From positions 1 to 53,519 of the forward strand of contig MGKI01000008.1 in assembly GCA_001795615.1 (NCBI GenBank): DNA of 53,519 bases, given 5' to 3'. This document shows positions 12,181-48,145 of this stretch, in pieces; the first letter of the stretch is position 1, and the number at the start of each line of letters is the position of its first letter. This DNA is from Candidatus Yanofskybacteria bacterium RIFCSPLOWO2_01_FULL_42_49 (GTDB taxonomy: Bacteria; Patescibacteriota; Minisyncoccia; 2-02-FULL-40-12; GWA2-44-9). Below the pieces are notes generated by a model. It did no database searches. It worked only from the letters and a program-made list of their open reading frames with translations, and was not told where the DNA came from. Both the position numbers and the translations under genes were made by a program.

Positions 12181-12232
12181 GGATATCCCTTTTTTAAAAA
12201 ACCGTTGAGTGGTATACTATCATAAACAAATT

Positions 12233-12385
12233 AAAATCTCTAATCTCGAAACCCTAATCTCTAAATAATATCAAAATTCAAAATTATGTCCCCTTGGGAC
12301 ATCTCCCGAAGGGAGAAAAATTTTAAAACTTTTGAGATTTGACATTTGAGTTTATTTAGAAATTAGAGATTAGAATTTAGAGATT
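12233..12385. repeat. AT-rich palindromic 'word' element, family I copy 1, with two GC mini-hairpins at its centre
   Basis: The left arm aaatctctaatctcgaaaccctaatctctaaa is complementary to the right arm tttagaaattagagattagaatttagagatt. The centre holds atgtccc-ctt-gggacat and ctccc-gaa-gggag. Its arms are almost identical to those of 33314-33435. Confidence 0.85.
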
Positions 12386-12395
12386 ATCGTATAAC

Positions 12396-17964: not shown

Positions 17965-18177
17965 TTGAACAACAGCGACAAACAAAAAACAGAAGGTCAG
18001 GTTATTGAAGCTTTACCCAATACGACTTTTAAGGTTACACTAAATGACGGAAGAGAGGTATTGGCATATCTTTCGGGCAAAATGCGCCTGAACTATATTA
18101 AAGTTATGATAGGCGACAGGGTGACCCTCGAATTAAGTCCGGACGGAAAAAGAGGAAGGATAGTGCGACGGCTATAG
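17965..18177 (+). CDS. infA: Translation initiation factor IF-1
   Basis: 70 aa with a TTG start. The S1-like sequence is [32 protein letters not shown]...GDRV. Confidence 0.92.
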
Positions 18178-18180
18178 CCG

Positions 18181-18260
18181 TTTTAGGGATTAGGTTTTAG
18201 GGATTAGGTTTTAGGTTTTCATTGACCCTAACACCTAACACCTAAAAGCTAACAACTAAC
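18181..18260 (+). repeat. Intergenic word-repeat hairpin
   Basis: The G/U-rich left arm (ttagggattaggtt x2, ttaggtttt) faces a C/A-rich right arm (ccctaaca cctaaca cctaaaa). Complementarity is imperfect. Confidence 0.7.
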
Positions 18261-18374
18261 ATTAAAGTTCGTGCTTCGGTTAAAAAAATGTGTATTAATT
18301 GTAAGTTAGTAAGGCGAAAAGGTCGCCTCTATTGTTTGTGCAAAAACCCTAAACACAAGCAACGACAAGGATAA
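18261..18374 (+). CDS. rpmJ: Ribosomal protein L36, copy 1 (ATT in the start position)
   Basis: Not in the ORF track because it is under 60 aa. The reading ATT AAA GTT CGT ... gives (I/M)[36 protein letters not shown]. There is no in-frame ATG, GTG or TTG upstream before a stop. Confidence 0.7.
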
Positions 18375-18388
18375 ATAATGTGTAACAC

Positions 18389-18454
18389 AAATCTACGAAT
18401 GGCATGCGAATACTACGAATAACTATTTGTAGCATTCGTGTAAATTTGTAGATT
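18389..18454 (+). repeat. Word-repeat hairpin between the two rpmJ copies
   Basis: aaatctacgaat...gcgaatactacgaata pairs with tatttgtagcattcgt...atttgtagatt. Several pairs are G-U, so the hairpin is better in plus-sense RNA. Confidence 0.7.
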
Positions 18455-18482
18455 AGAGTTATATTGTGAGCCAAAGTGAACA

Positions 18483-18596
18483 ATGAAGGTACGAGCTTCG
18501 GTTAAAAAAATGTGTATTAATTGTAAATTAGTAAGGCGAAAGGGTCGCCTCTATTGTTTGTGTAAAAATCCTAAACACAAGCAACGACAAGGATAA
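18483..18596 (+). CDS. rpmJ: Ribosomal protein L36, copy 2 (ATG start)
   Basis: [37 protein letters not shown]. Has the Zn-ribbon CxxC...CxC...H pattern. Confidence 0.9.
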
Positions 18597-18636
18597 ACTC
18601 GATATTTCGAAATTTCGATATGTCGATATTTCAATA

Positions 18637-20225: not shown

Positions 20226-20228
20226 AAA

Positions 20229-20299
20229 GTTTCTAGTGTCTAGCTTTTAGTTTCTAGTGATTTCTAAACTAGCCAACTAAAATCTAGCAACTAAAAACC
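20229..20299 (+). repeat. Intergenic word-repeat hairpin
   Basis: gtttctagtgtctagcttttagtttctagtg faces ctagccaactaaaatctagcaactaaaaac. Complementarity is imperfect. Confidence 0.65.
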
Positions 20300-20305
20300 A
20301 AAGTC

Positions 20306-21046
20306 ATGATACAGTTACCCGAACAAGTAAAAATACTAAAAAAAGAGGGGCATCGGTCCACTTTTGAAATTTCGCCGCTCATGCCTGGTTACGGCGCCAC
20401 TATCGCCAATCCCTTAAGGCGTATCCTTTTGTCTTCTCTTGAAGGCGCCGCCATTACATCCATAAAAATAAAAGGCGTTGATCATGAGTTTTCCAGTGTT
20501 CCTGGAGTAGCTGAAGATATAATTCAAATAATCTTAAATGTTAAAAAAATAAGGTTTAGGCTCCATTCGGGAGAGCCTGTTAAATTAACCGTGAGCGCAA
20601 AGGGGGAAAAAGAAGTTACCGCAGGAGACATCAAGACGACTTCAGATGTCGAAATTATCAATACTGATCAGCACATTGCCACTTTAACCGATAAAAAAGC
20701 TGATTTTGAAATGGAACTAGACATAGAAAAAGGAGTAGGCTATGTACCAGTTGAGCAGAGACAAAAAGAAAAATTAGCCATAGGTGCAATCGCTATAGAT
20801 GCTATTTTTTCACCTGTTAAGGTGGTTAATTTCACGATAGAGAATGTCCGTGTCGAACAGAGAATTGACTTCAATAAAATAACCATGGATGTTGAAACTG
20901 ACGGTTCCATTGAGCCGGAGGAGGCCTTGAATAAAGCATCAGAAATACTTGTAAGCCATTTTGAAATTACGGGTTCGGTTGAAGTGCCAGTGAAAAAAGA
21001 AAAAGGAGAGAAGGCAAAGAAAAAGACGGCAAAGAAGAAGAGATAA
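20306..21046 (+). CDS. rpoA: RNA polymerase alpha subunit, N-terminal domain only
   Basis: 246 aa. The alpha-NTD sequence is GYGATIANPLRRILLSSLEGAAITSIKIKGV.HEFS. It ends in the Lys-rich tail VKKEKGEKAKKKTAKKKR with no alpha-CTD. Confidence 0.9.
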   Translation: MIQLPEQVKILKKEGHRSTFEISPLMPGYGATIANPLRRILLSSLEGAAITSIKIKGVDHEFSSVPGVAEDIIQIILNVKKIRFRLHSGEPVKLTVSAKGEKEVTAGDIKTTSDVEIINTDQHIATLTDKKADFEMELDIEKGVGYVPVEQRQKEKLAIGAIAIDAIFSPVKVVNFTIENVRVEQRIDFNKITMDVETDGSIEPEEALNKASEILVSHFEITGSVEVPVKKEKGEKAKKKTAKKKR

Positions 21047-21167
21047 CCAATACTCAACATCCAATCAAACTACAAAATATTAAAAAATTAAAAAAAGTTT
21101 AAAGAATTGGTTATTGAGTTATTGATTATTGCCTGCCTGACCTCCGATAGGCGGGCCGGTAGGCAGG
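21047..21167 (+). repeat. Intergenic AT-rich inverted words plus a GC hairpin
   Basis: ccaatactcaacatccaatc faces gaattggttattgagttattg. The GC hairpin cctgcct...aggcagg follows at 21132-21167. Confidence 0.65.
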
Positions 21168-21178
21168 ATGATTAAATC

Positions 21179-21526: not shown

Positions 21527-21603
21527 TGCGAAACTACGAACAAATTATGCGAACACTACGAACGGTTCGCACAGTTCGCATTTAAGTTCGCGATGTTCGC
21601 ATT
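21525..21603 (+). repeat. Intergenic word-repeat hairpin (gcgaac/gttcgc words)
   Basis: aatgcgaa-acta-cgaac-aaatt-atgcgaac-acta-cgaac folds onto gttcg-caca-gttcgcat-ttaa-gttcg-cgat-gttcgcatt. Paired words alternate with internal loops. Confidence 0.7.
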
Positions 21604-21618
21604 ATATATTTTATAGAT

Positions 21619-24856: not shown

Positions 24857-25112
24857 CGAGGCCATCAGATAATTTTTTACGCCTTACGCTCCATTAACAA
24901 ATCCAGCGATAATTTCTCATTGTTCAGACAAAAATTTAGCATCCGTTCCTCCTTCGGCAAGCTCAGGATTTTCCGGCTAAATTTTATGGAAGATTAGGTA
25001 AAATTAACATATGTTAATTTTACCTAATCTTTGCTTACCTGAACAATTTCTAAATTATCTTGGATTTGTGATAAAGGAGCGTAAACGCTAGAAAAATTAT
25101 CTGATGGCCTCG
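24857..25112. repeat. 256-bp compound inverted repeat (MITE-like or large RNA hairpin)
   Basis: The outer arms 24857-24927 and 25039-25112 begin with a perfect 21-bp match (cgaggccatcagataattttt) and are otherwise about 80% complementary. The centre 24990-25031 is a perfect 42-bp palindrome. A side hairpin spans 24931-24985. Confidence 0.85.
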
Positions 25113-25191
25113 TTCCCTGGACGGTTTAATTTAATCGATGAAAATTCTATGGTGTATTCACTTTGATACATCAAAGTATCATGGTGTTATT

Positions 25192-25790: not shown

Positions 25791-25910
25791 ATTAGAAAAA
25801 TTAACCTAATTATTCTAATTAATCTAATTATTCTAAACTTTTGAAATTTATAATTTGAGATTCCTGCCTGCCGGCAGGCAGGTGTTTAGAAATTAGAAAT
25901 TAGAAATTTA
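25791..25910. repeat. AT-rich word hairpin with a central 20-bp GC palindrome
   Basis: ctaattattctaattaatctaattattctaaa faces tttagaaattagaaattagaaattt. The centre is cctgcctgccggcaggcagg (25863-25882). Confidence 0.8.
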
Positions 25911-25911
25911 A

Positions 25912-27042
25912 GTGCGTTTAGCACTTGTCCATGATTGGTTAAACACTCTTGGGGGCGCGGAACGCGTTTTAATTGAGTTGCACAAAATTTTCCCCGACGC
26001 TCCGATTTATACGCTTTTTTATAACAAAAAATTCAGGTCCCAGTATTTGCCTAACGCTGACATTAGACCAAGTTTTCTCCAAAAATTTCCTCTGATCACT
26101 AGGCACCATAAACTATTCGCTATCTTGATGCCAAGCGCCATAGAGTCATTTGACCTGTCGGATTTTGATACGGTGATTTCATCATCGGTCTTTTTTTCAA
26201 AAGGCTTAGTATTAAGACCGAAAACAAGACACATCTGCTACTGTTACAGCCCGACTCGTCAGCTTTGGGATTTAAATAAATTAGATACTAAAATTGGAAA
26301 TTTAAACTTGGAAATTGGAACTTCCGTAGCAAAACATTTGCTACGGCTATGGGATCGTCAAGCAGCGGACAGGGTTGATGAATTCGTTGCCATTTCCGAA
26401 ATAGTGCGATCGAGGATACAAAAGTACTATAAACGGGATGCCAAAGTTATTTACCCCCCCATTACCCTAAATCCTAAACTCGAAACTCTAAACTCTAAAC
26501 CCCAGTACCAGGGCAAAGCACGGTACGGGGCACGGCAAACTCAAAACGACTATTACTTAATTGTCTCAAGATTATATCCTCACAAAAATATTGATGTTGC
26601 CGTTGAAGCATTTGCTAAGCTTAATTTACCGCTTATCATAATCGGCGACGGACCAGAATATAAAAATCTCAAATCTCAAATCTCAAATCTCAAATCCATC
26701 ATAATTACGGGTTTTGTGCCTGATGAAAAATTGCCTTTTTACTATCAAAATTGCCGAGCTTTTATAATGCCACAAGAAGAAGACTTCGGCTTAACGCCGC
26801 TTGAGGCAATGTCATTCGGTAAGCCGATTTTAGCTCTGCGCAAAGGCGGAGCGCTTGAGACGATTCGGGAAGGAGTAACCGGAGAATTCTTTGACAACCC
26901 GATACCGGAAGCGCTAGCCGATGGAGTAAGGCGATTGAATGAAAATTATCCTAATTATCGTCCGGAGGTAATTCAATCCCACGCCAAACAATTCTCGGTA
27001 GAAATTTTTAAGAAAAAGATCCTGGAATTAATTTCTGCTTAA
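25912..27042 (+). CDS. Glycosyltransferase family 4 (GT-B)
   Basis: 376 aa with a GTG start. Has the typical GT4 C-terminal half (YLIVSRLYPHKNID..., IIGDGPE, E.FGLTPLEAMSFGKPILA). Contains in-frame word repeats. Confidence 0.85.
   Translation: MRLALVHDWLNTLGGAERVLIELHKIFPDAPIYTLFYNKKFRSQYLPNADIRPSFLQKFPLITRHHKLFAILMPSAIESFDLSDFDTVISSSVFFSKGLVLRPKTRHICYCYSPTRQLWDLNKLDTKIGNLNLEIGTSVAKHLLRLWDRQAADRVDEFVAISEIVRSRIQKYYKRDAKVIYPPITLNPKLETLNSKPQYQGKARYGARQTQNDYYLIVSRLYPHKNIDVAVEAFAKLNLPLIIIGDGPEYKNLKSQISNLKSIIITGFVPDEKLPFYYQNCRAFIMPQEEDFGLTPLEAMSFGKPILALRKGGALETIREGVTGEFFDNPIPEALADGVRRLNENYPNYRPEVIQSHAKQFSVEIFKKKILELISA
26664..26696 (+). repeat. Heptanucleotide tandem repeat (aaatctc) x4.7 inside the GT4 CDS
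   Basis: Units at 26664-70, 71-77, 78-84 and 85-91, plus a partial aaatc. Encodes KNLKSQISNLKS. Confidence 0.95.
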
Positions 27043-27971: not shown

Positions 27972-28007
27972 ATATTAGCTTCTAGGTGATAGCTTTTAGA
28001 AAAAGGG

Positions 28008-28035
28008 CTAAAACCTAAAACCTAAAACCTAAAAC
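28008..28035 (+). repeat. Heptanucleotide tandem repeat (ctaaaac) x4 abutting a start codon
   Basis: Four perfect units end 1 nt before the TTG start at 28037. Confidence 0.95.
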
Positions 28036-28036
28036 C

Positions 28037-29212: not shown

Positions 29213-30767
29213 TTTTTTAAATTGGTTTTTCGCAGTTGAGGTTATTTTGTTTAGCTTAATAATCACTGGTATTTTGCCGCGAGAGATAGCACTTTATCTG
29301 GGTGCGGCTTTGGTTATATATTTTTTGGCCGCGCCACTTGATGATTCTCTGGTATTTTTTGTGAGGTCAATTCCGCTATTTTTGGCACTGCCGATTACAG
29401 CAGGGTTTGATAATTTTAATGTGTGGAGGATACTCGCCGCAATACTATTTTTGAAATGGCTCTTCAAAAATAGTATTAAGTATTATGTATTATGTATTAA
29501 GGATTGGGTCAAAAATTTCAGTTATAAAAAACCGCCCTTTTTGCTTATCATTTTATTGATCCTCGCGGTTTTATCCGTAATTCCGGCGCCGGATAAGATG
29601 GCAGCAATAAAGCGAATAATATTTTTCTTAAATTTTGCTGTACTCGGAGTAGTTATTTGTGATAAAGCAGAAAACCAAGAGTTCGTAAAAAGACTAATCA
29701 AAAATTCAATTATTCCCGTCATTATCGTTGCCACAGTCGGATATATTCAAGTTATCTCAACCTACTTTATTGATATTTACCAATTCATGAGAATCTGGGG
29801 CGAGGGGATACAATGCCGCCAGTTCGGCGAACAGTGGTGCAACATCGCCGTCCAGCTTGGCAACACTTGGTTCGCGTATTTTGGAGAACAGTTATCGTTG
29901 AGGGTTTTTTCTCTGTTCCCTGATTCACATTCATTCCCGCAGTTCGTATTGCTTGGAATTCCAGCCATACTCGCAATGCTATTGCGAAAAAACACAAATC
30001 ACAAAACACAAATCACAAATAAAACCCAAAAAATAAAAGCACAAATCCCCAGAATAATCATTTTATCGTCGTTGTTCTTAATAATAATATTGAGCGGAAC
30101 ACGAGGAATTTGGGCGGCAAGCGTGGGGGTAATTTTACTTGCCTTAGCAATAATTTTCTACACAAATAGACAAATGCCAACAAAATCTGCAATTGCGGAA
30201 AATGTTGGCACTTTCAAAAATTTAACACGGTATTTAGTTATATTTTTCGTAATGTTTGCGGTCGCCTTTCCCATATTCTCCTCTCCGCAATTCTTAGTAG
30301 GAAAGAGTGATGATATTCTAAAAAACCGAATTAAATCGATAATTGACTTCGGAGAAACATCCAACGCCCAGCGGATAGAAATTTGGAAGAAGACATTATC
30401 GTCAATTAAAGAAAAGCCGTTTCTTGGTGTTGGCATAGGCAATTATCCGGTCGTGTTGGAACAGGACATACGTTTAGCCAAAGCCGGTTCATCGGCGCAT
30501 AATTTGTATCTTCATATTACGGCAGAAATGGGAATTCTGGCCGGAATAATTTTCATCTGGTTTTTGTGGCTTTTGTTCAAGAGAAATTATGATATTTTTA
30601 CTAAAGAAGGTGATAAGCAACTTGGAATCTACTTTGCCGCTACACTTTTATTCGTGCCTTGGGTTTTGATATATTCTCTCACCGATATTGCGATTTTTGA
30701 CGAAAGGTCTTTTTTGATGTTTGTGACTACAACGGCTTTAATTTTGGGAACAAAAAAGCCCGATTAA
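29202..30767 (+). CDS. O-antigen ligase / Wzy-like polytopic membrane protein
   Basis: 521 aa with many TM segments. Contains LSGTRGIWAAS and GSSAHNLYLHITAEMGILAG (Wzy_C-like). Confidence 0.8.
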   Translation: MKNNFLNWFFAVEVILFSLIITGILPREIALYLGAALVIYFLAAPLDDSLVFFVRSIPLFLALPITAGFDNFNVWRILAAILFLKWLFKNSIKYYVLCIKDWVKNFSYKKPPFLLIILLILAVLSVIPAPDKMAAIKRIIFFLNFAVLGVVICDKAENQEFVKRLIKNSIIPVIIVATVGYIQVISTYFIDIYQFMRIWGEGIQCRQFGEQWCNIAVQLGNTWFAYFGEQLSLRVFSLFPDSHSFPQFVLLGIPAILAMLLRKNTNHKTQITNKTQKIKAQIPRIIILSSLFLIIILSGTRGIWAASVGVILLALAIIFYTNRQMPTKSAIAENVGTFKNLTRYLVIFFVMFAVAFPIFSSPQFLVGKSDDILKNRIKSIIDFGETSNAQRIEIWKKTLSSIKEKPFLGVGIGNYPVVLEQDIRLAKAGSSAHNLYLHITAEMGILAGIIFIWFLWLLFKRNYDIFTKEGDKQLGIYFAATLLFVPWVLIYSLTDIAIFDERSFLMFVTTTALILGTKKPD

Positions 30768-31135: not shown

Positions 31136-32263
31136 ATGTCAAATCCTTTGGTCACAATAAACCTCGTGGTTCTCAACGGTGAAAAGTACATCCGCCATTG
31201 TTTGGATGCGGTTTTGGCGCAGACATATCCGCATAAGCTGATCGAACTAAACATTTTAGATAACGGCTCAACGGATAAAACAAAGGAAAATATTAGAGAT
31301 TCGAAATTAGAGATTAGAGATTCCGAGTTTTTCACTTTCAATCTCATTGAAAGTCCGAAAAATCTCGGTGTTTGGCCGGGACAAGAAGAATTACTAAAAC
31401 ACACGAGTGGCAAATATATAGTATCCTTGTGCGTTGATGTATTAATGGACAAGGACTTTATTAAAAATGCGGTAGAAGTAATGGGGAAGGATGAAAAAAT
31501 CGGCGCGCTCCAGCCGAAGATATACAGCTTCGAATTGGGAATTATGAATAAAGAATCAAGAAGTGAAAACCATAATTCATTATTCCCTATTCATTATTCA
31601 CGCATTATTGACACTTGTGGTTTTAAAATTTTCCGATCACGCCGTGTCATAAACATTGGCCACGGCGAGAAAGACCATGGCCAGTACGACAACCTCGGAG
31701 AAATTTTTGCCGTTGAAGGAGCAGCGCCGGTATTCCGCAAAGAAGCCCTAAAAGACTGTCAAATTAAATTAACGACATCGGATGGCCGTTGGACATCCGA
31801 TGTCCCCGCAACTGAAATCACCGACCACGACTACTTCTGGTACGGCGACGATCTGGATCTGGCTTGGCGGATGAGGTTATTCGGATGGAAAGAAGTATTC
31901 GCGCCCAATGTAATCGCATGGCATGACAGACAGACAACGAAATCGATCAAGAAAAGCTGGTCCGACTACATCACCAGAGTTCCGGTGCGCAGGCAAATTC
32001 CCATCAAAAAACGCCGTCTCGACTGGAGAAATTTGCGTTGGACATTAGTTAAAAATGATTATATAATAAACATTCTGAAAGACTTGCCCCAGATCATGTT
32101 AAGAGAGATAGCCGTGCTTGGATACGCAGTTTTATTTGAACCGGCGGTGCTTAAAGAAATACCGGCATTTTTCCGATATTTACCCAAAATGCTGAGAAAA
32201 AGAAAAGAGATAATGAGGCGGACAATCATAACGCCAAGAGAAATAAGGAAATGGATCAATTAG
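31136..32263 (+). CDS. Glycosyltransferase family 2
   Basis: VTINLVVLNGEKYIRHCLDAVLAQTY, LDNGSTDKT and a DxD-like YGDDLDLAWR. Several in-frame repeats and hairpins. Confidence 0.85.
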   Translation: MSNPLVTINLVVLNGEKYIRHCLDAVLAQTYPHKLIELNILDNGSTDKTKENIRDSKLEIRDSEFFTFNLIESPKNLGVWPGQEELLKHTSGKYIVSLCVDVLMDKDFIKNAVEVMGKDEKIGALQPKIYSFELGIMNKESRSENHNSLFPIHYSRIIDTCGFKIFRSRRVINIGHGEKDHGQYDNLGEIFAVEGAAPVFRKEALKDCQIKLTTSDGRWTSDVPATEITDHDYFWYGDDLDLAWRMRLFGWKEVFAPNVIAWHDRQTTKSIKKSWSDYITRVPVRRQIPIKKRRLDWRNLRWTLVKNDYIINILKDLPQIMLREIAVLGYAVLFEPAVLKEIPAFFRYLPKMLRKRKEIMRRTIITPREIRKWIN

Positions 32264-33315
32264 ATTTTAACTCCCATGATTTTCAAAATAAAAAGAAGCG
32301 AAAATGGGGTCGCTTTTTTTTGCTTGCCGGATTTTTAGCCGTAAGCTATATAATTTTTAACACGGCTCTATTTAATAAAGAATTTGAAATAAAAAACGAA
32401 TTCGCCGAAGAAGATAAGTTTGAAGCGGCCTGGCTCAAGAAATTTGCCGGTTTATTGTTCTTCAATCAAAACCACGCCGAAGAAATAGACAAGAACTACA
32501 TCATGCCAGAAAAAGAGCCAAACCGACTGGACATACTGATCCTCGGCATAAGGGGAGAAGGCGACGAGAACGCTGAAGAAGGCGGAGCATTGCTTACCGA
32601 TACAATGATGGTGTTTAGCCATGACCAACTTACCAAAAAATCTTCTCTAGTTTCAATCCCCCGGGATTTCTATGTCAAAATAGGCTCAAATAAAAATAAA
32701 ATAAACTCCGCTTACGAATACGGACTTCTGAGAAAAGAAGGGGCTGATTACGCAAAGAAATTAGTATCTCAAATAACAGGCGTTTATATAGATAACGCCG
32801 TCGTGGTAGATTTCTCTTCGTTTGAAAAATTAATAGACCAGCTCAGAGGCATAGATATAACTCTGACCAAATCATTCCGCGAAGAAGGCCAGTGGGGATA
32901 TGCTTTTGAACTGCCGGCAGGCGAAAACCACCTGAACGGACAAAATGCTTTGTATTATGTCCGCTCGAGATATTCGTCTAACGATTTTGACCGCGCATTC
33001 AGACAACAGCAGGTATTGTTCGCGATAAAAAACAAAGTAACAACCCTGCATTTGATTTCTGATCCTATAAAAATTCTATCCGTAATTAATACATTAAGCC
33101 AAAACATAAAAACCGACATCAACATCTGGGATGTGAAAGAAATAATTGATCTTGCCAAAGAAGTGGACACCTCGCCGGCCATGTTTAAGAAAGAAGTCTT
33201 GTCAACGGAAAACCTTCTCTACCAGTCAACTGGCCCTCAAGGAGCTTATATTCTATTGCCGCAAGGAGATAGTTTTGACCAAATCAAGCAGTTATTTCAA
33301 GAAATAATAAAATAA
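32251..33315 (+). CDS. LytR-CpsA-Psr (LCP) family protein
   Basis: An N-terminal TM segment, then LILGIRGEG...ALLTDTMMV...SIPRDFYV and Y.RSRY. Confidence 0.85.
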   Translation: MDQLDFNSHDFQNKKKRKWGRFFLLAGFLAVSYIIFNTALFNKEFEIKNEFAEEDKFEAAWLKKFAGLLFFNQNHAEEIDKNYIMPEKEPNRLDILILGIRGEGDENAEEGGALLTDTMMVFSHDQLTKKSSLVSIPRDFYVKIGSNKNKINSAYEYGLLRKEGADYAKKLVSQITGVYIDNAVVVDFSSFEKLIDQLRGIDITLTKSFREEGQWGYAFELPAGENHLNGQNALYYVRSRYSSNDFDRAFRQQQVLFAIKNKVTTLHLISDPIKILSVINTLSQNIKTDINIWDVKEIIDLAKEVDTSPAMFKKEVLSTENLLYQSTGPQGAYILLPQGDSFDQIKQLFQEIIK

Positions 33316-33435
33316 ATCTCTAATCTCAAAACCCTAATCTCTAAACAAATCCAAAAACCCAAATCTCAAAAACGTTTTGAATTTTGATATTTGAGATTAT
33401 TTAGAGATTAGAAATTAGAATTTAGAGATTAGAAT
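33314..33435. repeat. AT-rich palindromic 'word' element, family I copy 2
   Basis: The left arm aaatctctaatctcaaaaccctaatctctaaa is 30/31 identical to 12234-12264. The right arm is ...tttagagattagaaattagaatttagagattagaat. It fills the whole spacer from stop codon to start codon. Confidence 0.9.
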
Positions 33436-35598: not shown

Positions 35599-35648
35599 TT
35601 CAATATAATGCAAATCTACGAATTTATGCGAATGCAACGAATAGTTAT

Positions 35649-38853: not shown

Positions 38854-39261
38854 ATGAAGTATACCCTATCAAAATTCCTCAACTTAATCAAGTCCCATCA
38901 GCACCATCTTTTTCTTGCCGCTTGTATCGGCTTAATTAGCATGATCAGCTATAACTTGGGTCAAATTAACTCACTAGAGAAAACACCCATCAGCATTAAA
39001 AATTCAGCGAACAACAAAGCTGAAATTTTTGATGCCGTAAACCCTAAGTCCCAAACTCTAAATTCTAAACAAACTCAAAACTCAAAACCTCAAACCCAAA
39101 AACTAGATACAAGGGTTGTTGTTTCTAAAAATTTCGATAAGTACCACTATTCTTGGTGCTCCGGCGGGAAAAGAATCAAACCGGAAAATCAGATATGGTT
39201 TAACTCCGCTCAAGAAGCAGAATCAAAAGGATATGTTTTGGCAGGGAATTGTGCTAAATAA
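38854..39261 (+). CDS. Membrane-anchored protein with a C-terminal YH..C...GY....C metal-binding-like motif
   Basis: 135 aa. One TM segment, the in-frame low-complexity segment NPKSQTLNSKQTQNSKPQTQK, and the C-terminus YHYSWCSGGKRIKPENQIWFNSAQEAESKGYVLAGNC. Confidence 0.6.
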   Translation: MKYTLSKFLNLIKSHQHHLFLAACIGLISMISYNLGQINSLEKTPISIKNSANNKAEIFDAVNPKSQTLNSKQTQNSKPQTQKLDTRVVVSKNFDKYHYSWCSGGKRIKPENQIWFNSAQEAESKGYVLAGNCAK

Positions 39262-42498: not shown

Positions 42499-42512
42499 AT
42501 TACAAGTTTAGC

Positions 42513-42630
42513 AAATTTCTAATTACTAATTCCTAATTTCTAAATATAATGTCTAATCCTTAAATTTCTAAAATTGGTCATTAGAAATTGGGGATTTGAT
42601 TAGAAATTAGATATTAGAAATTAGTAATTC
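42513..42630. repeat. AT-rich palindromic 'word' element, family II copy 2
   Basis: aaatttctaattactaattcctaatttctaaatataatgtctaat faces attagaaattagatattagaaattagtaatt. It shares aaatttctaat, ctaattactaat, atgtctaat and attagaaattagatatt with 34221-34343. Confidence 0.8.
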
Positions 42631-42646
42631 ATCAAATAAACCTTGT

Positions 42647-43342
42647 TTATTTGATGTTAATGTATTTTTCCCAACACTCATAAAGTTTCTCTGTTGCCAA
42701 AACATCATCAAAACAATATTCGGCGATTTTCATATATTCTTTGTCCTTGAATAATTGTGCGACATCTTCACCTGATATTCCTTCCGACTTGGGACTTTTG
42801 ATACCAAAGGCCCGACACCACATGTGTAAACCGCCCTTGCGCCTCACCGCGCCAAAAAATGTCAGACGGTCCAGCAAATCAAGATGTGTTATTATTTTGC
42901 CGTATTGCTCCGATTCATATCTATATGTCATTAAATTCTTGGCCGGTTTAATTTTATTTATCGCTGAACGAATCATCAGATACGGAGCATCAAAACCGCG
43001 TCCGTTGAATGTGATGAATTGATCGTAGTGAGCGGACGCGTCCCAGAAGCTCTTCAGGAGGTCTTTTTCGGTTTTATGGCGAATGTATTGGACATTATCG
43101 TTTTCTGTTTTTTCATAACTTCCGTCAGGAGAAAGAAAGTAAACAGCACCCTTACTTGTTTCGGGATTTAATACTCCTATTGCCACCACCTGCCCCGTTA
43201 GGGGAGAGAAGCCAAGCCCGTCTTTGACCGCTTCAACGTCTTCAGGTGTTTCGGCAAAACGCAAAAGCAGTTCCTGTGACTTGTTGTCCAGGGAATCAAA
43301 TTCAACACCAACGGTCTCAATATCGAAAATCAGTTTAGGCAT
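42647..43342 (-). CDS. DnaQ-fold 3'-5' exonuclease related to the PolB exonuclease domain
   Basis: KLIFDIETVG (ExoI), FNGRGFDAPYL (ExoII) and YCFDDVLAT (ExoIII). Confidence 0.75.
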   Translation of the reverse strand: MPKLIFDIETVGVEFDSLDNKSQELLLRFAETPEDVEAVKDGLGFSPLTGQVVAIGVLNPETSKGAVYFLSPDGSYEKTENDNVQYIRHKTEKDLLKSFWDASAHYDQFITFNGRGFDAPYLMIRSAINKIKPAKNLMTYRYESEQYGKIITHLDLLDRLTFFGAVRRKGGLHMWCRAFGIKSPKSEGISGEDVAQLFKDKEYMKIAEYCFDDVLATEKLYECWEKYINIK

Positions 43343-45386: not shown

Positions 45387-46766
45387 CTACAAGTAGTCAT
45401 TTGGATTTACTGTATTATTATAATTGAAATACAGTTGACCATTCTTTTCATTAATATAGGTGAAAAACTCTTTATATATGCTCAAGTGGACATGAGAACC
45501 AGTTGAAAATCCAGTTGAGCCCTCATAACCAATTATATCACCGGCTTTAACCTGGCTGCCAACTCTTACAAACTCAAAAGCGCTCAGGTGGCCGTAAACA
45601 CTGACTAAATCATACGGCGGATGCTTGATAGCCACCCAATTTCCCCATCCGTCATTTTTGCCGTTAGCAACAACCTCTCCGTCGCCTATCGCCTTAACCG
45701 GGCTACCGTAACCGGAAGCCATATCAATGCCGTTGTGAGGCGCTCCGCCGTAAGGTCCGCGCCTTGAGTTACATCGAGCATATCTGGTACATCCGTATCC
45801 TTGAGTAATTCTATAGTCTTCTTCCGGCCACTTGAAAAGATCGGTTCCCTTTTTAGGCAAGTTGTGCGCTTCCACACGAAGAATATACAGTCCACCCTGT
45901 ATAATCTTGGTCTCAATCTCTTTCATCTCCGTAAAAAAGAGCGACTGTTTTCTCTCCACTTCTTCAAGCAGCCTTTGATACTCGGCTTCCTGTCCTTTGG
46001 TAACTTTTAGCAAGCCATCTTTTTCTTTTTGGGTACCGCCTAAAGCTAGTTTCTGACTAGACTGCTGGCGATTTAAATTTTCAAGTTCCCGCTTTTTATT
46101 TTCCAGGTTAGATTTATGGTTTTCGTAAGCGTTTTTTGTGGAACGCAAATCGTTGACTAACGAAAGCAGACTTTCGCTGACACTGGTTGCCTGCTGAACC
46201 CGGTTGAGAAAATCAGAGATGTTGGCATTCTTCATCATGGCAACAAGCAGGCTCTCTCTGTCTTGCCGATAAAGTTCAAGCAATAGTTCCCCAATTGCGC
46301 TTTTCTGATATTCAATCCTGCCTTGAGTGGTATATATTTCGTCAGTCGTGTTTTGTATTTCTATGCCCGTGCTGTTGATTTTTTTTATAGTGATATTTAT
46401 TTGGGTTTTAAGGCTATTTATCTGATTCTGGAGAATTGAAATTTCTTTATTCAACGATTCAGCATTGGCGTGTTCTTTAGCAATATTCTGGCGATATTGT
46501 TCGGCTTGCTGTTCAAGCCGTTCTATCTCCTGGCGCAATTGGGAGATTCGTTCATCGTCGGTTTGGGCAGTAGCTGCTGGCACAAAAAAAATCAGCGCAA
46601 AAAAAAGAAGCAAGCCAATTAGAGACACTAGAGACCCAGCCCTTTGCATGGTCGAGGATAGTATAATCGTTTCACTGTCCGAGAAAGGGCTGGGCGAAAG
46701 TAGCCGAGGTTGCACGCTGGGCAACCGGAGGCGTGTCGAAAATTGGCTTGCTTCTTTTTTTTTCAT
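45387..46766 (-). CDS. M23 (LytM-type) peptidase with a coiled-coil region
   Basis: HNGIDMA, GWGNWVAIKH, YGHLS and GSHVHLSI. The longest ORF starts at 46766, where its ATG overlaps the gltX TGA as ATGA. An alternative start at 46649 (MQRAGSLVSLIGLLLFF) would exclude structured element B. Confidence 0.85.
   Translation of the reverse strand: MKKKEASQFSTRLRLPSVQPRLLSPSPFSDSETIILSSTMQRAGSLVSLIGLLLFFALIFFVPAATAQTDDERISQLRQEIERLEQQAEQYRQNIAKEHANAESLNKEISILQNQINSLKTQINITIKKINSTGIEIQNTTDEIYTTQGRIEYQKSAIGELLLELYRQDRESLLVAMMKNANISDFLNRVQQATSVSESLLSLVNDLRSTKNAYENHKSNLENKKRELENLNRQQSSQKLALGGTQKEKDGLLKVTKGQEAEYQRLLEEVERKQSLFFTEMKEIETKIIQGGLYILRVEAHNLPKKGTDLFKWPEEDYRITQGYGCTRYARCNSRRGPYGGAPHNGIDMASGYGSPVKAIGDGEVVANGKNDGWGNWVAIKHPPYDLVSVYGHLSAFEFVRVGSQVKAGDIIGYEGSTGFSTGSHVHLSIYKEFFTYINEKNGQLYFNYNNTVNPNDYL
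46599..46762 (-). ncRNA. Structured element 'B', second copy of the 36158-36306 module
   Basis: A perfect 22-bp closing stem (aaaaaaaagaagcaagccaatt / aattggcttgcttctttttttt) encloses the conserved core. The inner helix is cccagcccttt/aaagggctggg. It lies between the gltX stop and the M23 signal peptide, in the same sense relative to its flanks as copy A. Confidence 0.6.
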
Positions 46767-48145
46767 GGCAACTTATTGATTGCTGTGTCTATTCTTCTCA
46801 AGACGGTCTCTTTTGTCAGTATAGCCGCTACATCAACCGGATCCGGAGACTTTTCTTTGCCTGTTAACGCAACCCTGAACGGCCAATATACCAATCCCCT
46901 GCTTGCCCCGAGTGGAATCGAGGGATCGCCCAGTTTTTTGCTTAAATCATCCAGAGCCAACCGCAAGGAGTCTTTATCAGAACCGTTCCAATTTTCAATA
47001 ACCCTTTTTGTTTCATTCAAGGAGTTTGTAATTTCATCTTTTGTGAATTTTTTCCAATTCAAAAGTTCAGAATCATAACTTGGCTCTTTCCATAAGTAAC
47101 TAAAATCATTTATGTCAGACAACTTATTTAACCGTTCCGTGATAAGCGGTATAGCCACGTCAAGCATTTCCGGCAGATTTGTTAATTGTTTAATTGTTAA
47201 ATTGTTTAATTGTTTTATGTATTGCGAATTTATCCAGTTCAATTTTTCTACATTAAAAACTGCGCCAGCCTTGTGGATTTTTCCGAGCTCAAACTCGTTT
47301 ACCATTTCCTCTTTTGTTATGATTTCTTTACTGAAGGTGTAACTTAATCCCCCGAGAAAATTTAAAAGCGCTTCCGGTAAATAATCTTGTTTATAATCCA
47401 AAGTTCCCGTACCGCCATGGCGTTTAGAAAGTTTTGACCGATCTAATCCTAAAACAAGAGGAAGGTGGGCAAAGAAAGGAATTTTAAAACCAAGAGCTTC
47501 GTATATTAAAATTTGCTTAGGAGTATTGGAGATATGATCCTCTCCTCGAATGACATGGGTAATGCCCATCTCAGCGTCGTCCGCCACAACAGCAAAATTA
47601 TAAAGCGGATCTTCAATAGCTCGAGCAATCGAAAAATCACCCAACAACGCCTCCTGAAACTCTATTCTCCCTCTGATCTGATCGTCGAAGGAAATAATGC
47701 GGCCAGAGCTTTCATTTACCGCTAAGCGAATAATGCCGCCGGGTATTTTATTTTTGTCCGTATTTTTATGCTCGCAGAAATGGCGAGGCGCCTCTTTTCT
47801 GGCTTCTTGCTGTTGCCGTTCCGCTTCCAGATCTTCTTGGCTGTGGTGACAATAAAATGCTTTCCCTTCGCTAAGTAATCTCTCCAACAACTCTTTATGT
47901 TTATGTAAATTGTCGCTTTGCCTGACAAAATCTCCGTTTGGCATTAAATCTAACCAAGCCAGTGCCTCTCTTATGCCGTTTTCGGACTCTTTGGTTGAGC
48001 GAATTTTGTCTGTGTCCTCAATCCGCACATAAAAATCTCCGCCATTTTTACGGGCAAAGAGCCAGTTATAAAGCGCAGATTGAGCATTGCCGACATGGAA
48101 AGATCCGGTCGGCGACGGAGCTATCCGTACTTTAACTTTATCCAT
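46763..48145 (-). CDS. gltX: Glutamyl-tRNA synthetase
   Basis: VRIAPSPTGSFHVGNAQSALYNW (HIGH-type), RIEDTD and KLSKRHG (KMSKS). Confidence 0.93.
   Translation of the reverse strand: MDKVKVRIAPSPTGSFHVGNAQSALYNWLFARKNGGDFYVRIEDTDKIRSTKESENGIREALAWLDLMPNGDFVRQSDNLHKHKELLERLLSEGKAFYCHHSQEDLEAERQQQEARKEAPRHFCEHKNTDKNKIPGGIIRLAVNESSGRIISFDDQIRGRIEFQEALLGDFSIARAIEDPLYNFAVVADDAEMGITHVIRGEDHISNTPKQILIYEALGFKIPFFAHLPLVLGLDRSKLSKRHGGTGTLDYKQDYLPEALLNFLGGLSYTFSKEIITKEEMVNEFELGKIHKAGAVFNVEKLNWINSQYIKQLNNLTIKQLTNLPEMLDVAIPLITERLNKLSDINDFSYLWKEPSYDSELLNWKKFTKDEITNSLNETKRVIENWNGSDKDSLRLALDDLSKKLGDPSIPLGASRGLVYWPFRVALTGKEKSPDPVDVAAILTKETVLRRIDTAINKLP

Follow-up and report, generated by a model that had tools for sequence, protein, structure and literature searches.

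The DNA analysed here, called the window, is the whole 53,519-nt stretch (53.5 kb) of contig MGKI01000008.1 (positions 1 to 53,519, forward strand) from Candidatus Yanofskybacteria bacterium RIFCSPLOWO2_01_FULL_42_49 (assembly GCA_001795615.1), a member of the Candidate Phyla Radiation (CPR), or Patescibacteria. Together with extensions of 6.8 kb and 1.3 kb it makes up the 61.6 kb of the genome that was examined. The window holds, among other genes, a ribosomal protein operon in the co-directional order (by Pfam) rpsM-rpsK-rpsD-rpoA-rplQ, with a hairpin-forming repeat between rpsD and rpoA and another between rpoA and rplQ, and a glycosyltransferase/O-antigen-ligase cluster with further hairpins between its genes. 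Our main subject is a dispersed palindrome, referred to as family I, whose arms are made of AATCTCT and AGAGATT units. Copy 1 lies between the divergent genes for adenosine deaminase and thioredoxin, and copy 2 takes up the whole spacer between a LytR_cpsA_psr gene and a glycosyltransferase family 2 (GT2) gene (Table 1).

Each copy is an imperfect palindrome; its arms measure 48-50 nt and show 74-79% complementarity. The arm pair of copy 1 is 48 nt long and 79% complementary; copy 2 pairs positions 33315-33364 with 33381-33430 around a loop of 16 nt and is bordered by the TAA stop codon of the LytR_cpsA_psr gene (33313-33315) and, 1 nt beyond its other end, by the GTG start codon of the GT2 gene (33437), whose Pfam domain starts at residue 3. 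An earlier note on this DNA, made from the letters alone, had claimed that the spacers at 12233-12385 and 33314-33435 share one element and that copy 1 carries two GC mini-hairpins at its centre, and both claims were borne out. The left arms are identical at 30 of 31 positions, the copies are collinear across both arms, and the sole large difference between them is a 35-nt central indel, present in copy 1, that contains the mini-hairpins. The irregular units AATCTCG/A, AAACCCT, and AAATTCT keep their order between the copies and, because they are shared in the same order in both arms, the two copies are, judged by their sequences, related by descent and not convergent. Outside the alignment the flanks are unrelated (...CAAATTA / TCGTATA and ...ATAAAAT / GAATAGT), and no target-site duplication was seen at either copy, where the AT-rich flanks could hide short ones.

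Chance similarity of low-complexity AT-rich spacers, or an artefact of assembly, might be proposed as the source of this likeness, given that the GC content of the two spacers is 0.25-0.28 and that comparable AT-rich arrays of periods 7 and 8 are widespread, including in viral contigs. A degenerate arm pattern with 24 specified bases matched all four arms exactly and four more sites with at most three mismatches, eight observed against 0.00 expected from dinucleotide-preserving shuffles, and TTAGAGATTAGA, at no more than one mismatch, occurred 18 times against 0.3 expected. Copy 1 is identical in six independent assemblies (aquifer metagenomes with ANAN16/Rifle-type sample names) and is therefore not an assembly artefact. 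The earlier note's matches within genes likewise survived the shuffling tests of the arm pattern, of TTAGAGATTAGA, and of period-7 runs. The shuffles and the independent assemblies refute both chance and artefact, to which we give practically no credence.

Tandem Repeats Finder resolved the arms of copies 1 and 2 into tandem degenerate 7-nt units, AATCTCT on the 5′ side and AGAGATT on the 3′ side, and returned about 25 period-7 rows in the window, which include both arms of both copies. Strict period-7 runs numbered 8 against 0.0 expected in the shuffles and strict period-14 runs 18 against 0.2, with other periods near zero. At a looser threshold (80% of lag-7 positions matching within a 28-nt window), 16 period-7 arrays were detected in the 53.5 kb where 0 were expected, equal to 30 per 100 kb, and the numbers of arrays at periods 5, 6, 7, 8, and 9 were 0, 1, 16, 3, and 3. 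An inverted partner is present at seven of the eight intergenic array loci; arrays in coding sequence are single-armed, the sole exception being a small hairpin in a GT2 gene (31532-31600). At least seven spacers besides those of copies 1 and 2 have the same hairpin architecture built from other units. Family I itself amounts to two full copies and one arm-like stretch in the 61.6 kb, with no further copy in the 6.8 kb and 1.3 kb adjoining the window. With moderate confidence, we regard it as one sequence subfamily of a genome-wide class of elements with tandem heptanucleotide arms. What the earlier note had singled out as the element thus stands as a real subfamily, although it is one of several unit families within a period-7 phenomenon.

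Table 1. Family I copies, other spacer hairpins, and in-frame arrays of the window
Feature	Position	Strand	Context
Copy 1, AATCTCT-type heptamer palindrome	12233-12387	.	Divergent adenosine deaminase/thioredoxin spacer
Copy 1 left arm, C-rich	12235-12282		AATCTCT AATCTCG AAACCCT AATCTCT AAATAAT ATCAAAA TTCAAA
Copy 1 apex, two GC mini-hairpins, ATGTCCCCTTGGGACAT and TCTCCCGAAGGGAGA	12286-12302, 12302-12316		Inside the 35 nt absent from copy 2
Copy 1 right arm, G-rich	12338-12386		TTAGAAA/TTAGAGA units
Copy 2	33314-33435	.	Whole LytR_cpsA_psr-GT2 spacer
Heptamer hairpin, G-arm first (GTTTTAGGGATTAG ... CCTAACA)	18180-18261	.	Begins 2 nt past the stop of gene 17965-18177
Heptamer hairpin, AGTTTCT / CTAAAAT, CTAGCAA units	20228-20298	.	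Fills the rpsD-rpoA spacer
Degenerate heptamer hairpin	21052-21119	.	rpoA-rplQ spacer; followed by GC hairpin 21122-21175
AT-rich repeat hairpin ending in (TTAGAAA)3.3, apex GC palindrome CCTGCCTGCCGGCAGGCAGG	25799-25908	.	Upstream of the GT4 gene
Hairpin, 3′ arm a perfect (CTAAAAC)4.3	27975-28036	.	3′ arm reaches the next start codon
Heptamer hairpin, AATATCT/AATGTCT ... ATTAGAA	34222-34343	.	GT2-S41 peptidase spacer
AATTTCT-type heptamer hairpin	42511-42632	.	Fills the spacer between two minus-strand genes
Array of CTAAACT/CTCGAAA units	26464-26506	+	In frame, GT4 interdomain linker; followed by GC mini-hairpin 26499-26530
Perfect array (AAATCTC)4.7	26661-26699	+	GT4, encodes NLKSQISNLKS
Array of AGTATTA units	29472-29505	+	In frame, Wzy_C (O-antigen ligase-like) gene
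Array of AAATCAC/AAAACAC units	29989-30020	+	In frame, loop of the Wzy_C gene, read KNTNHKTQITNK
Single-arm array ATTAGAG ATTCGAA ATTAGAG ATTAGAG ATT	31292-31322	+	In frame, GT2 gene, read ENIRDSKLEIRDS
Small heptamer hairpin GAATTGG GAATTAT GAATAAA ... CATTATT CCCTATT CATTATT	31532-31600	+	In frame, GT2; z = −2.4
Degenerate array of AAACTCT/AAACTCA units	39038-39100	+	In frame, ORF 38854-39261, read NPKSQTLNSKQTQNSKPQTQK
Period-8 array, TTAATTGT x 4.2	47182-47215		In frame, gltX linker between catalytic and anticodon-binding domains, read IKQLNNLTIKQLTNL

The spacer hairpins are closely fitted to the genes around them. In all six co-directional spacers that are bounded on both sides, the hairpin lies 0-5 nt past the stop codon and 0-20 nt before the start codon; at 18180-18261, 375 nt separate the hairpin from the next start. 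A Shine-Dalgarno (SD) core (GGAG, GAGG, or AGGAG, within ~20 nt upstream of the predicted start) precedes 5 of 44 genes. Copy 1 probably occupies the 5′ untranslated region of the thioredoxin gene. Upstream of it, at ~12210-12217, stands a GGTATACT box that by eye resembles a −10 element but that the automated scan did not list; its counterpart in the relative L127 is GGTATAAT.

Folded as RNA, copy 1 reaches −48.9 kcal/mol (z = −7.0) and copy 2 −33.8 kcal/mol (z = −7.3), and copy 2 folds well as single-stranded DNA too (z = −6.3). Such folds would be expected of a selected RNA structure, that is, of intercistronic messenger RNA hairpins that set relative expression within operons, for which the possible roles are an RNase III or other processing site, a 3′ stabiliser, a partial attenuator, or a termination-initiation "fold-out" bridge. 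The restriction of inverted pairing to intergenic loci, the stop-to-start hairpins in operon spacers, including rpsD-rpoA-rplQ, and the rarity of SD sites in this organism also favour this explanation, as does the fact that the window and the relatives L215 and L216 have hairpins in corresponding spacers despite complete turnover of the units (described below). Against it, at 24 co-directional hairpin loci, where gene orientation was assigned by a crude open reading frame (ORF) heuristic, the sense strand had no folding advantage over the antisense strand (9 vs. 9, mean difference in minimum free energy −0.4 kcal/mol), and G-U wobble gave no sign of selection at the RNA level. Copy 1 lies in a divergent spacer, and no U-tract was seen after the hairpins. 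Moreover, copy 1 is missing from the closest relative, and in most relatives the spacers are short and free of hairpins, which indicates that the hairpins are dispensable. We therefore consider a selected RNA structure unlikely.

Three other searches bear on the nature of the hairpins. An intrinsic (Rho-independent) terminator was rejected, since a U-tract is lacking and the hairpins lie inside the rpsD-rpoA-rplQ operon; no terminator-like site was detected at copy 2, and the only one at copy 1 is a minus-strand mini-hairpin within the element, in a divergent spacer. With Rfam 15, only three transfer RNAs in the window reached the gathering threshold, and the elements themselves drew only sub-threshold matches to eukaryotic microRNA precursors (17-34 bits against thresholds of 70-150). 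RNAalifold applied to 18 elements recovered the inner 13 pairs only, because the repeat arms align in shifted registers. The idea that the CTAA/TTAG core acts as a device placing stop codons in all frames is not general and was dropped: the L216 units CAACnAC and CACAAAA contain no stops.

Arrays of the same kind also run through genes, where they are genuine coding sequence. The earlier note had reported arm fragments in the GT2 gene, the glycosyltransferase family 4 (GT4) gene, a small ORF, and gltX. These stretches are present at the positions and in the reading frames that it gave, and related repeats do stand in frame in real genes, namely in the linker and a helix of GT4, within the Pfam GT2 match, and in a loop of Wzy. 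Their assignment to family I held only in part: the stretch at 31292-31322 is the only in-gene stretch close to a family I arm (2 mismatches to the arm pattern), whereas those at 26465-26503 and 39039-39103 are separate arrays of related units, and the gltX words have a period of 8 and are a different repeat. The array at 31292-31322 forms no hairpin and lies within the Pfam Glycos_transf_2 match, in a variable stretch just after DNGSTD (the following helix, by eye). Here and in the GT4 linker array the in-frame stop unit is mutated, with TCG and CGA, respectively, replacing TAG or TAA. The perfect (AAATCTC)4.7 array, within the Pfam Glycos_transf_1 match of the GT4 protein (a helix, by eye), is one base off the family I unit and contains no stop codon. 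ORF 38854-39261 is small and has no Pfam family. In an alignment of 22 GT4 homologs the interdomain linker is hypervariable, ranging from roughly 12 to 60 residues, and the linker peptides of homologs read like translated AATTTCn arrays, for example SNFKFLISNKIPN and SNFKFLISNK.

The (AAATCTC)4.7 array of GT4 was followed among strains and relatives. Its DNA sequence does not differ between the window, L214, and L215 despite differing synonymous sites on its flanks; the array is degenerate in L216 and has been kept perfect across orthologs that are 72% identical. Over the 10.8 kb that end at position 26694 the strain L214 and the window are 100% identical, and all 83 differences start from 26695, the 3′ end of the array (L214 10784 onward). 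As divergence begins at the end of the array, the array coincides with a recombination junction, and the glycosyltransferase cluster downstream of 26695 appears to be a strain-variable island.

Syntenic contigs for comparison came from assemblies GCA_016185505.1 and GCA_016203015.1; the closest named GT4 homologs and the syntenic contig from GCA_016185505.1 belong to Candidatus Yanofskybacteria. The closest relative found, represented by L127 and L128, has 89% amino acid identity in alanyl-tRNA synthetase (AlaRS) and ~78% nucleotide identity. Its deaminase-thioredoxin spacer (L127) measures 116 nt and contains no palindrome but a short AATAACC array before the ATG; the two spacers are too diverged to be aligned, and the exact insertion point of copy 1 could not be placed. 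Elsewhere, L128 has an array-bearing spacer of 92 nt where the window has 14 nt, and the rplM-rpsI spacer is 11 nt in the window and 167 nt, with a hairpin, in L216, where the hairpin is neatly bounded by the stop codon on one side and, on the other, by a conserved TAATTA motif that precedes the start. Operon spacers in most relatives are 1-60 nt long and without hairpins. Over 1.06 Mb from 80 relatives, period-7 arrays occurred at 3 per 100 kb, compared with 30 in the window; the arrays of the relatives at periods 5, 6, 7, 8, and 9 numbered 0, 3, 32, 6, and 5 and were patchily distributed.

Two syntenic Yanofskybacteria, L216 and L215, do have hairpins or arrays at many of the sites used in the window, built from different units. 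Heptamer hairpins or arrays occur in the rpsD-rpoA, rplQ-rplM, LytR-GT2, and GT2-S41 spacers of L216 and L215, and their units differ from those of the window. In L216, CAACnAC/GTTGTAG hairpins are found in rpsD-rpoA and in LytR-GT2, the spacer that copy 2 occupies in the window, CACAAAA units in rplM-rpsI and GT2-S41, and AAAATGn units in rplQ-rplM; L215 has ACATTCT units in rplQ-rplM and AATTTCT units in rplM-rpsI. The CAACnAC pair of L216, whose members are separated by 17 kb, shows 90% similarity, loop included, and parallels copies 1 and 2. Two sites within the GT2 gene behave likewise. At 31292-31322 the ATTAGAG array of the window faces a GGATTTC/GGATTTA array in L216, and at 31532-31600 the GAATTAT...CATTATT hairpin of the window faces a (CAACAAC CCACAAC) array, CAACAAC being the unit of L216's own spacer hairpins. 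Of the in-gene stretches, the Wzy_C array at 29989-30020 is absent from the L216 ortholog, but elsewhere arrays mostly stand at the same sites in other units. Species-level relatives differ in array length and unit. Pairs of units at a distance of at most 1 made up 28.7% of comparisons within genomes and 20.7% of those between genomes (permutation p = 0.03).

The near-identical whole copies in unrelated spacers, both copies 1 and 2 and the L216 pair, raise the question of a true nonautonomous mobile element, similar to a miniature inverted-repeat transposable element (MITE) or to repetitive extragenic palindromic (REP) sequences and bacterial interspersed mosaic elements (BIMEs), moved as a unit by a transposase or an enzyme of the REP-associated tyrosine transposase (RAYT) type encoded elsewhere, for which the heptamer arms would be repeated binding sites. 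Variable presence at orthologous spacers, the clean seating of the L216 rplM-rpsI hairpin between stop codon and TAATTA motif, and the possession by each genome of its own families are all as such an element would have it, and insertion into operons, and in frame into genes, is known for prokaryotic MITEs (PMC10969869). The details fit less well. Besides the missing target-site duplications, the ends are fuzzy, unit variants are specific to the locus, in-gene occurrences are single arms or other units rather than whole insertions, and the same 7-nt periodicity appears in perfect arrays that are clear slippage products. The 39 Pfam-scanned ORFs (mostly the longer of ~57) and the called genes of the 6.8-kb extension included no transposase, integrase, or Y1 transposase. 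The MITE- or REP-like family of the earlier note therefore stands as a family of dispersed palindromic repeats, while the target-site duplication and transposase of a MITE were not found in the 61.6 kb. Transposition of this kind seems to us an unlikely explanation.

Genome-specific unit families common to genic and intergenic sites, and arrays placed immediately before start codons in an SD-poor genome, might also be taken for binding-site arrays of a genome-specific nucleic acid-binding protein that reads the 7-nt unit and coevolves with it, by analogy with an idea raised earlier for the TAACTGA repeats of Beggiatoaceae (PMC4679880). Several unit families coexist in one genome, however, units are degenerate within arrays, and in-gene arrays in unrelated proteins are hard to fit as regulatory sites, so that such a protein is, in our estimation, very improbable.

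We favour, with rather more belief than doubt, a reading in which these are hairpin-forming heptanucleotide palindromes, related to long simple-sequence repeats (LSSRs) and short tandemly repeated repetitive (STRR) sequences, that arise by slippage and template switching, spread by ectopic copying, and are tolerated by folding out. Replication slippage with a 7-nt step would create and homogenise arrays anywhere; intrastrand template switching would then mirror one arm onto the other; and ectopic copying, whether gene conversion or nonautonomous transposition, would spread whole hairpins and give each genome its own unit families. In spacers the transcribed palindrome would fold out and bring the upstream stop beside the downstream start, in an organism that rarely uses SD sites, and in genes only stop-free, single-arm versions would survive, and only in linkers. 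Long AU-rich messenger RNA hairpins and short identical tracts usable as recombination junctions would be side effects, and the elements themselves are probably largely selfish or neutral.

Several results weigh against this account. Slippage alone explains neither the inverted pairing nor the near-identical hairpins in unrelated spacers, and a copying step is therefore required. No change in unit number was seen in arrays among 13 population contigs that are 98.9-100% identical, so slippage is not fast. The persistence of a perfect array in 72%-identical GT4 orthologs suggests constraint or recurrent exchange, not neutral drift. The comparison of unit families within and between genomes is weak, at p = 0.03 with units of low complexity. 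Finally, selection for a functional hairpin could account equally well for the pairing rule and for the presence of hairpins in corresponding spacers of three genomes.

A bolder proposal is that the shared sites and genome-specific units reflect an active "writing" or homogenising process, which could be ectopic templated repair, a dedicated enzyme, or a coevolving heptamer-binding factor, and that the stop-to-start hairpins are functional fold-out spacers; this we hold to be quite improbable. Were it true, the hairpins would let ribosomes stop at one gene and restart at the next, 70-150 nt away, which would amount to a new way of organising operons in CPR bacteria, and there would be a handle on the bacterial preference for 7-nt repeats. 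The locus offers a compact system for such questions, a small CPR genome in which hairpins fill spacers even in the ribosomal protein/rpoA operon and in which the same process would write peptide segments into enzyme linkers. If the hairpins are functional, or if dedicated copying exists, they would be relevant to how reduced, SD-poor genomes express their genes and to repeat-driven variation of surface glycans; otherwise they illustrate clearly how selfish or neutral repeats behave and call for care in annotating CPR spacers and low-complexity protein linkers.

Other features of the window were recorded beside these elements. RpoA (20306-21046), flanked by two of the hairpins, is 246 aa long, as in relatives, and its gene ends in a 15-nt tandem repeat (21009-21041); compared with the usual length of RpoA, the protein presumably lacks the alpha C-terminal domain. 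A predicted PolB-type 3′-5′ exonuclease (PF10108/RNase_H_2; 42647-43342) adjoins the hairpin at 42511-42632. Small GC-rich palindromes such as CCTGCCTGCCGGCAGGCAGG occur at the apex of, or beside, AT-rich arrays (25862-25881, 21131-21166, 26499-26530, and 12286-12316), and likewise in the GT4 linker of L215; these palindromes may represent a small element of their own that accompanies the arrays. The rplQ-rplM spacer contains a hairpin (21527-21618) made of tgcgaa/ttcgca ("gcgaa") words, a second word family that appears also at ~18390-18470 and 35599-35648; the relative L137 has a "gcgaa"-type hairpin in its own rplQ-rplM spacer (20291-20424). The 459-nt spacer upstream of rpsM contains a 115-nt direct repeat (18261-18375 and 18483-18597, 93% identical), each copy of which holds a small GC hairpin (ggcgaaaaggtcgcc) without an Rfam match. 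Between the convergent genes for mreB (+) and a histidine phosphatase (−) lies an imperfect palindrome of ~265 nt (24857-25120) with a perfect 42-nt centre (24990-25031) and a folding energy of about −122 kcal/mol on either strand. A 30-nt inverted repeat (46599-46628 and 46733-46762, 90% identical) is found near the M23 peptidase-gltX junction, (GA)12 at 233-256 in a divergent spacer, and a (CCTACT)35 hexamer array at the end of a longer contig, just past the window (L211 20504-20715).

Beyond these relatives, a looser arm pattern, run against species-representative genomes, gave at least 120 matching stretches, of which about one in three came from Patescibacteria and many from Bacteroidota. 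For roughly 30% of these stretches an inverted partner lay no more than 250 nt away; the C-rich arm came first in 29 cases and second in 10. A Saccharibacteria sequence (L050) has both the apical GC mini-hairpin and the inner-arm motif TTTGAGATTnTTTAG, a metagenome-assembled genome labelled only "bacterium" (L025) has the same inner-arm motif, and a metagenome contig with 56% identical AlaRS (L134) has the general architecture of the copies. Control searches of viral contigs found arrays of period 7 in 75 contigs, of period 8 in 46, and of period 6 in 7. A specific mobile family extending across phyla was rejected, as the matches are, according to these viral controls, largely generic AT-rich tandem repeats. 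Full-text literature searches returned no description of these repeat sequences or of heptamer repeats in CPR bacteria.

Among known systems, REPs and BIMEs are species-specific dispersed palindromes that occupy operon spacers, form messenger RNA hairpins, and keep their positions in part between species while their sequences differ. REPs measure 20-40 nt, are GC-rich, carry a conserved tetranucleotide at the 5′ end, and are associated with a RAYT gene. The elements described here resemble them as dispersed intergenic palindromes within operons (REPs are mentioned in PMC10969869) but are AT-rich, 70-150 nt long, and periodic at 7 nt in their arms; copies 1 and 2, at 120-155 nt and a GC content of 0.25-0.28, are outside the size and composition of REPs, and no RAYT (Y1 transposase) gene was found in the 61.6 kb. 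By analogy, then, they may be said to behave as a REP-like family of palindromic repeats, though without the features of REPs themselves.

MITEs such as Chunjie and ERIC, the repetitive intergenic consensus of enterobacteria, are likewise small, AT-rich, noncoding, and mostly intergenic, with terminal inverted repeats, compatibility with operons, and variable copy number (PMC10969869). Chunjie has inserted in an operon without disrupting it, and MITEs may insert in frame in genes (PMC10969869). Inverted repeats of 48-50 nt with 74-79% complementarity are present in our copies, and empty orthologous spacers exist in relatives, although too diverged to fix insertion points. Unlike MITEs, the elements show neither a target-site duplication nor, in the 61.6 kb, a parent insertion sequence or transposase; their termini are not fixed, and their arms are tandem arrays. 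Rickettsia palindromic elements (RPEs) share with them a length of 100-150 nt, a palindromic form, and an occurrence both in spacers and in frame in unrelated genes, where RPEs add surface peptide segments (PMC10969869). RPEs, however, insert whole and encode a conserved peptide, whereas the in-gene repeats here are mostly single-arm arrays with locus-specific units; no whole element was found in frame in a gene and absent from its orthologs, and only 31532-31600 forms a weak in-frame hairpin. Tandem interspaced guide RNA (TIGR) arrays, which occur in CPR bacteria and phages as repeat-spacer units of ~36 nt beside a Tas gene with a Nop domain (PMC12045711), were ruled out: our elements have a period of 7 nt and are scattered one by one, and no Nop-domain match was found among the scanned ORFs.

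Closest in structure are the heptanucleotide repeats. Heptanucleotide LSSRs are said to have been described by Mrazek et al. in 2007, and their over-representation in bacteria has reportedly been known since then. They are the most abundant class of LSSR, sporadic in occurrence, with slippage as the proposed cause (PMC4679880). With LSSRs, and with the cyanobacterial STRR sequences of Calothrix and Nostoc, our elements share tandem 7-nt units, a mostly intergenic location, a dominant period, lineage specificity, and slippage as a proposed origin (PMC4679880, PMC4692102). They differ in being short (3-5 units), degenerate, AT-rich, and in spacers almost always arranged as inverted pairs that fill the space between genes, in the dispersal of whole hairpins as families, and in their CPR/Patescibacteria host. 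The tandem 7-nt repetition and the excess of period 7 over neighbouring periods of that class were both found here, and the variation of unit number among strains was not.

Heptamers in inverted pairs are known from Xanthomonas and Nostoc, where GGGAATC and GGGGA(T/C)T arrays on each strand are capable of forming a stem-loop and, as here, lie between the same genes in related species while varying widely in length and sequence (PMC4692102). Those repeats are G-rich, have been studied as quadruplex formers, and are mostly single arrays, whereas the present ones are AT-rich and pairing is the rule. The TAACTGA repeats of Beggiatoaceae, Cyanobacteria, and Bacteroidetes are similar as stop-containing heptamers directly upstream of start codons in genomes where SD sites are rare, as occasional occupants of ORFs, and in their patchy phylogenetic distribution (PMC4679880). 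Each of those genomes uses one fixed unit in direct orientation (with one inverted case reported), whereas many units in inverted pairs are found here. Heptanucleotide repeats in bacteria were thus already known, and the elements described here are a hairpin-forming, spacer-filling variant of them in a CPR lineage.

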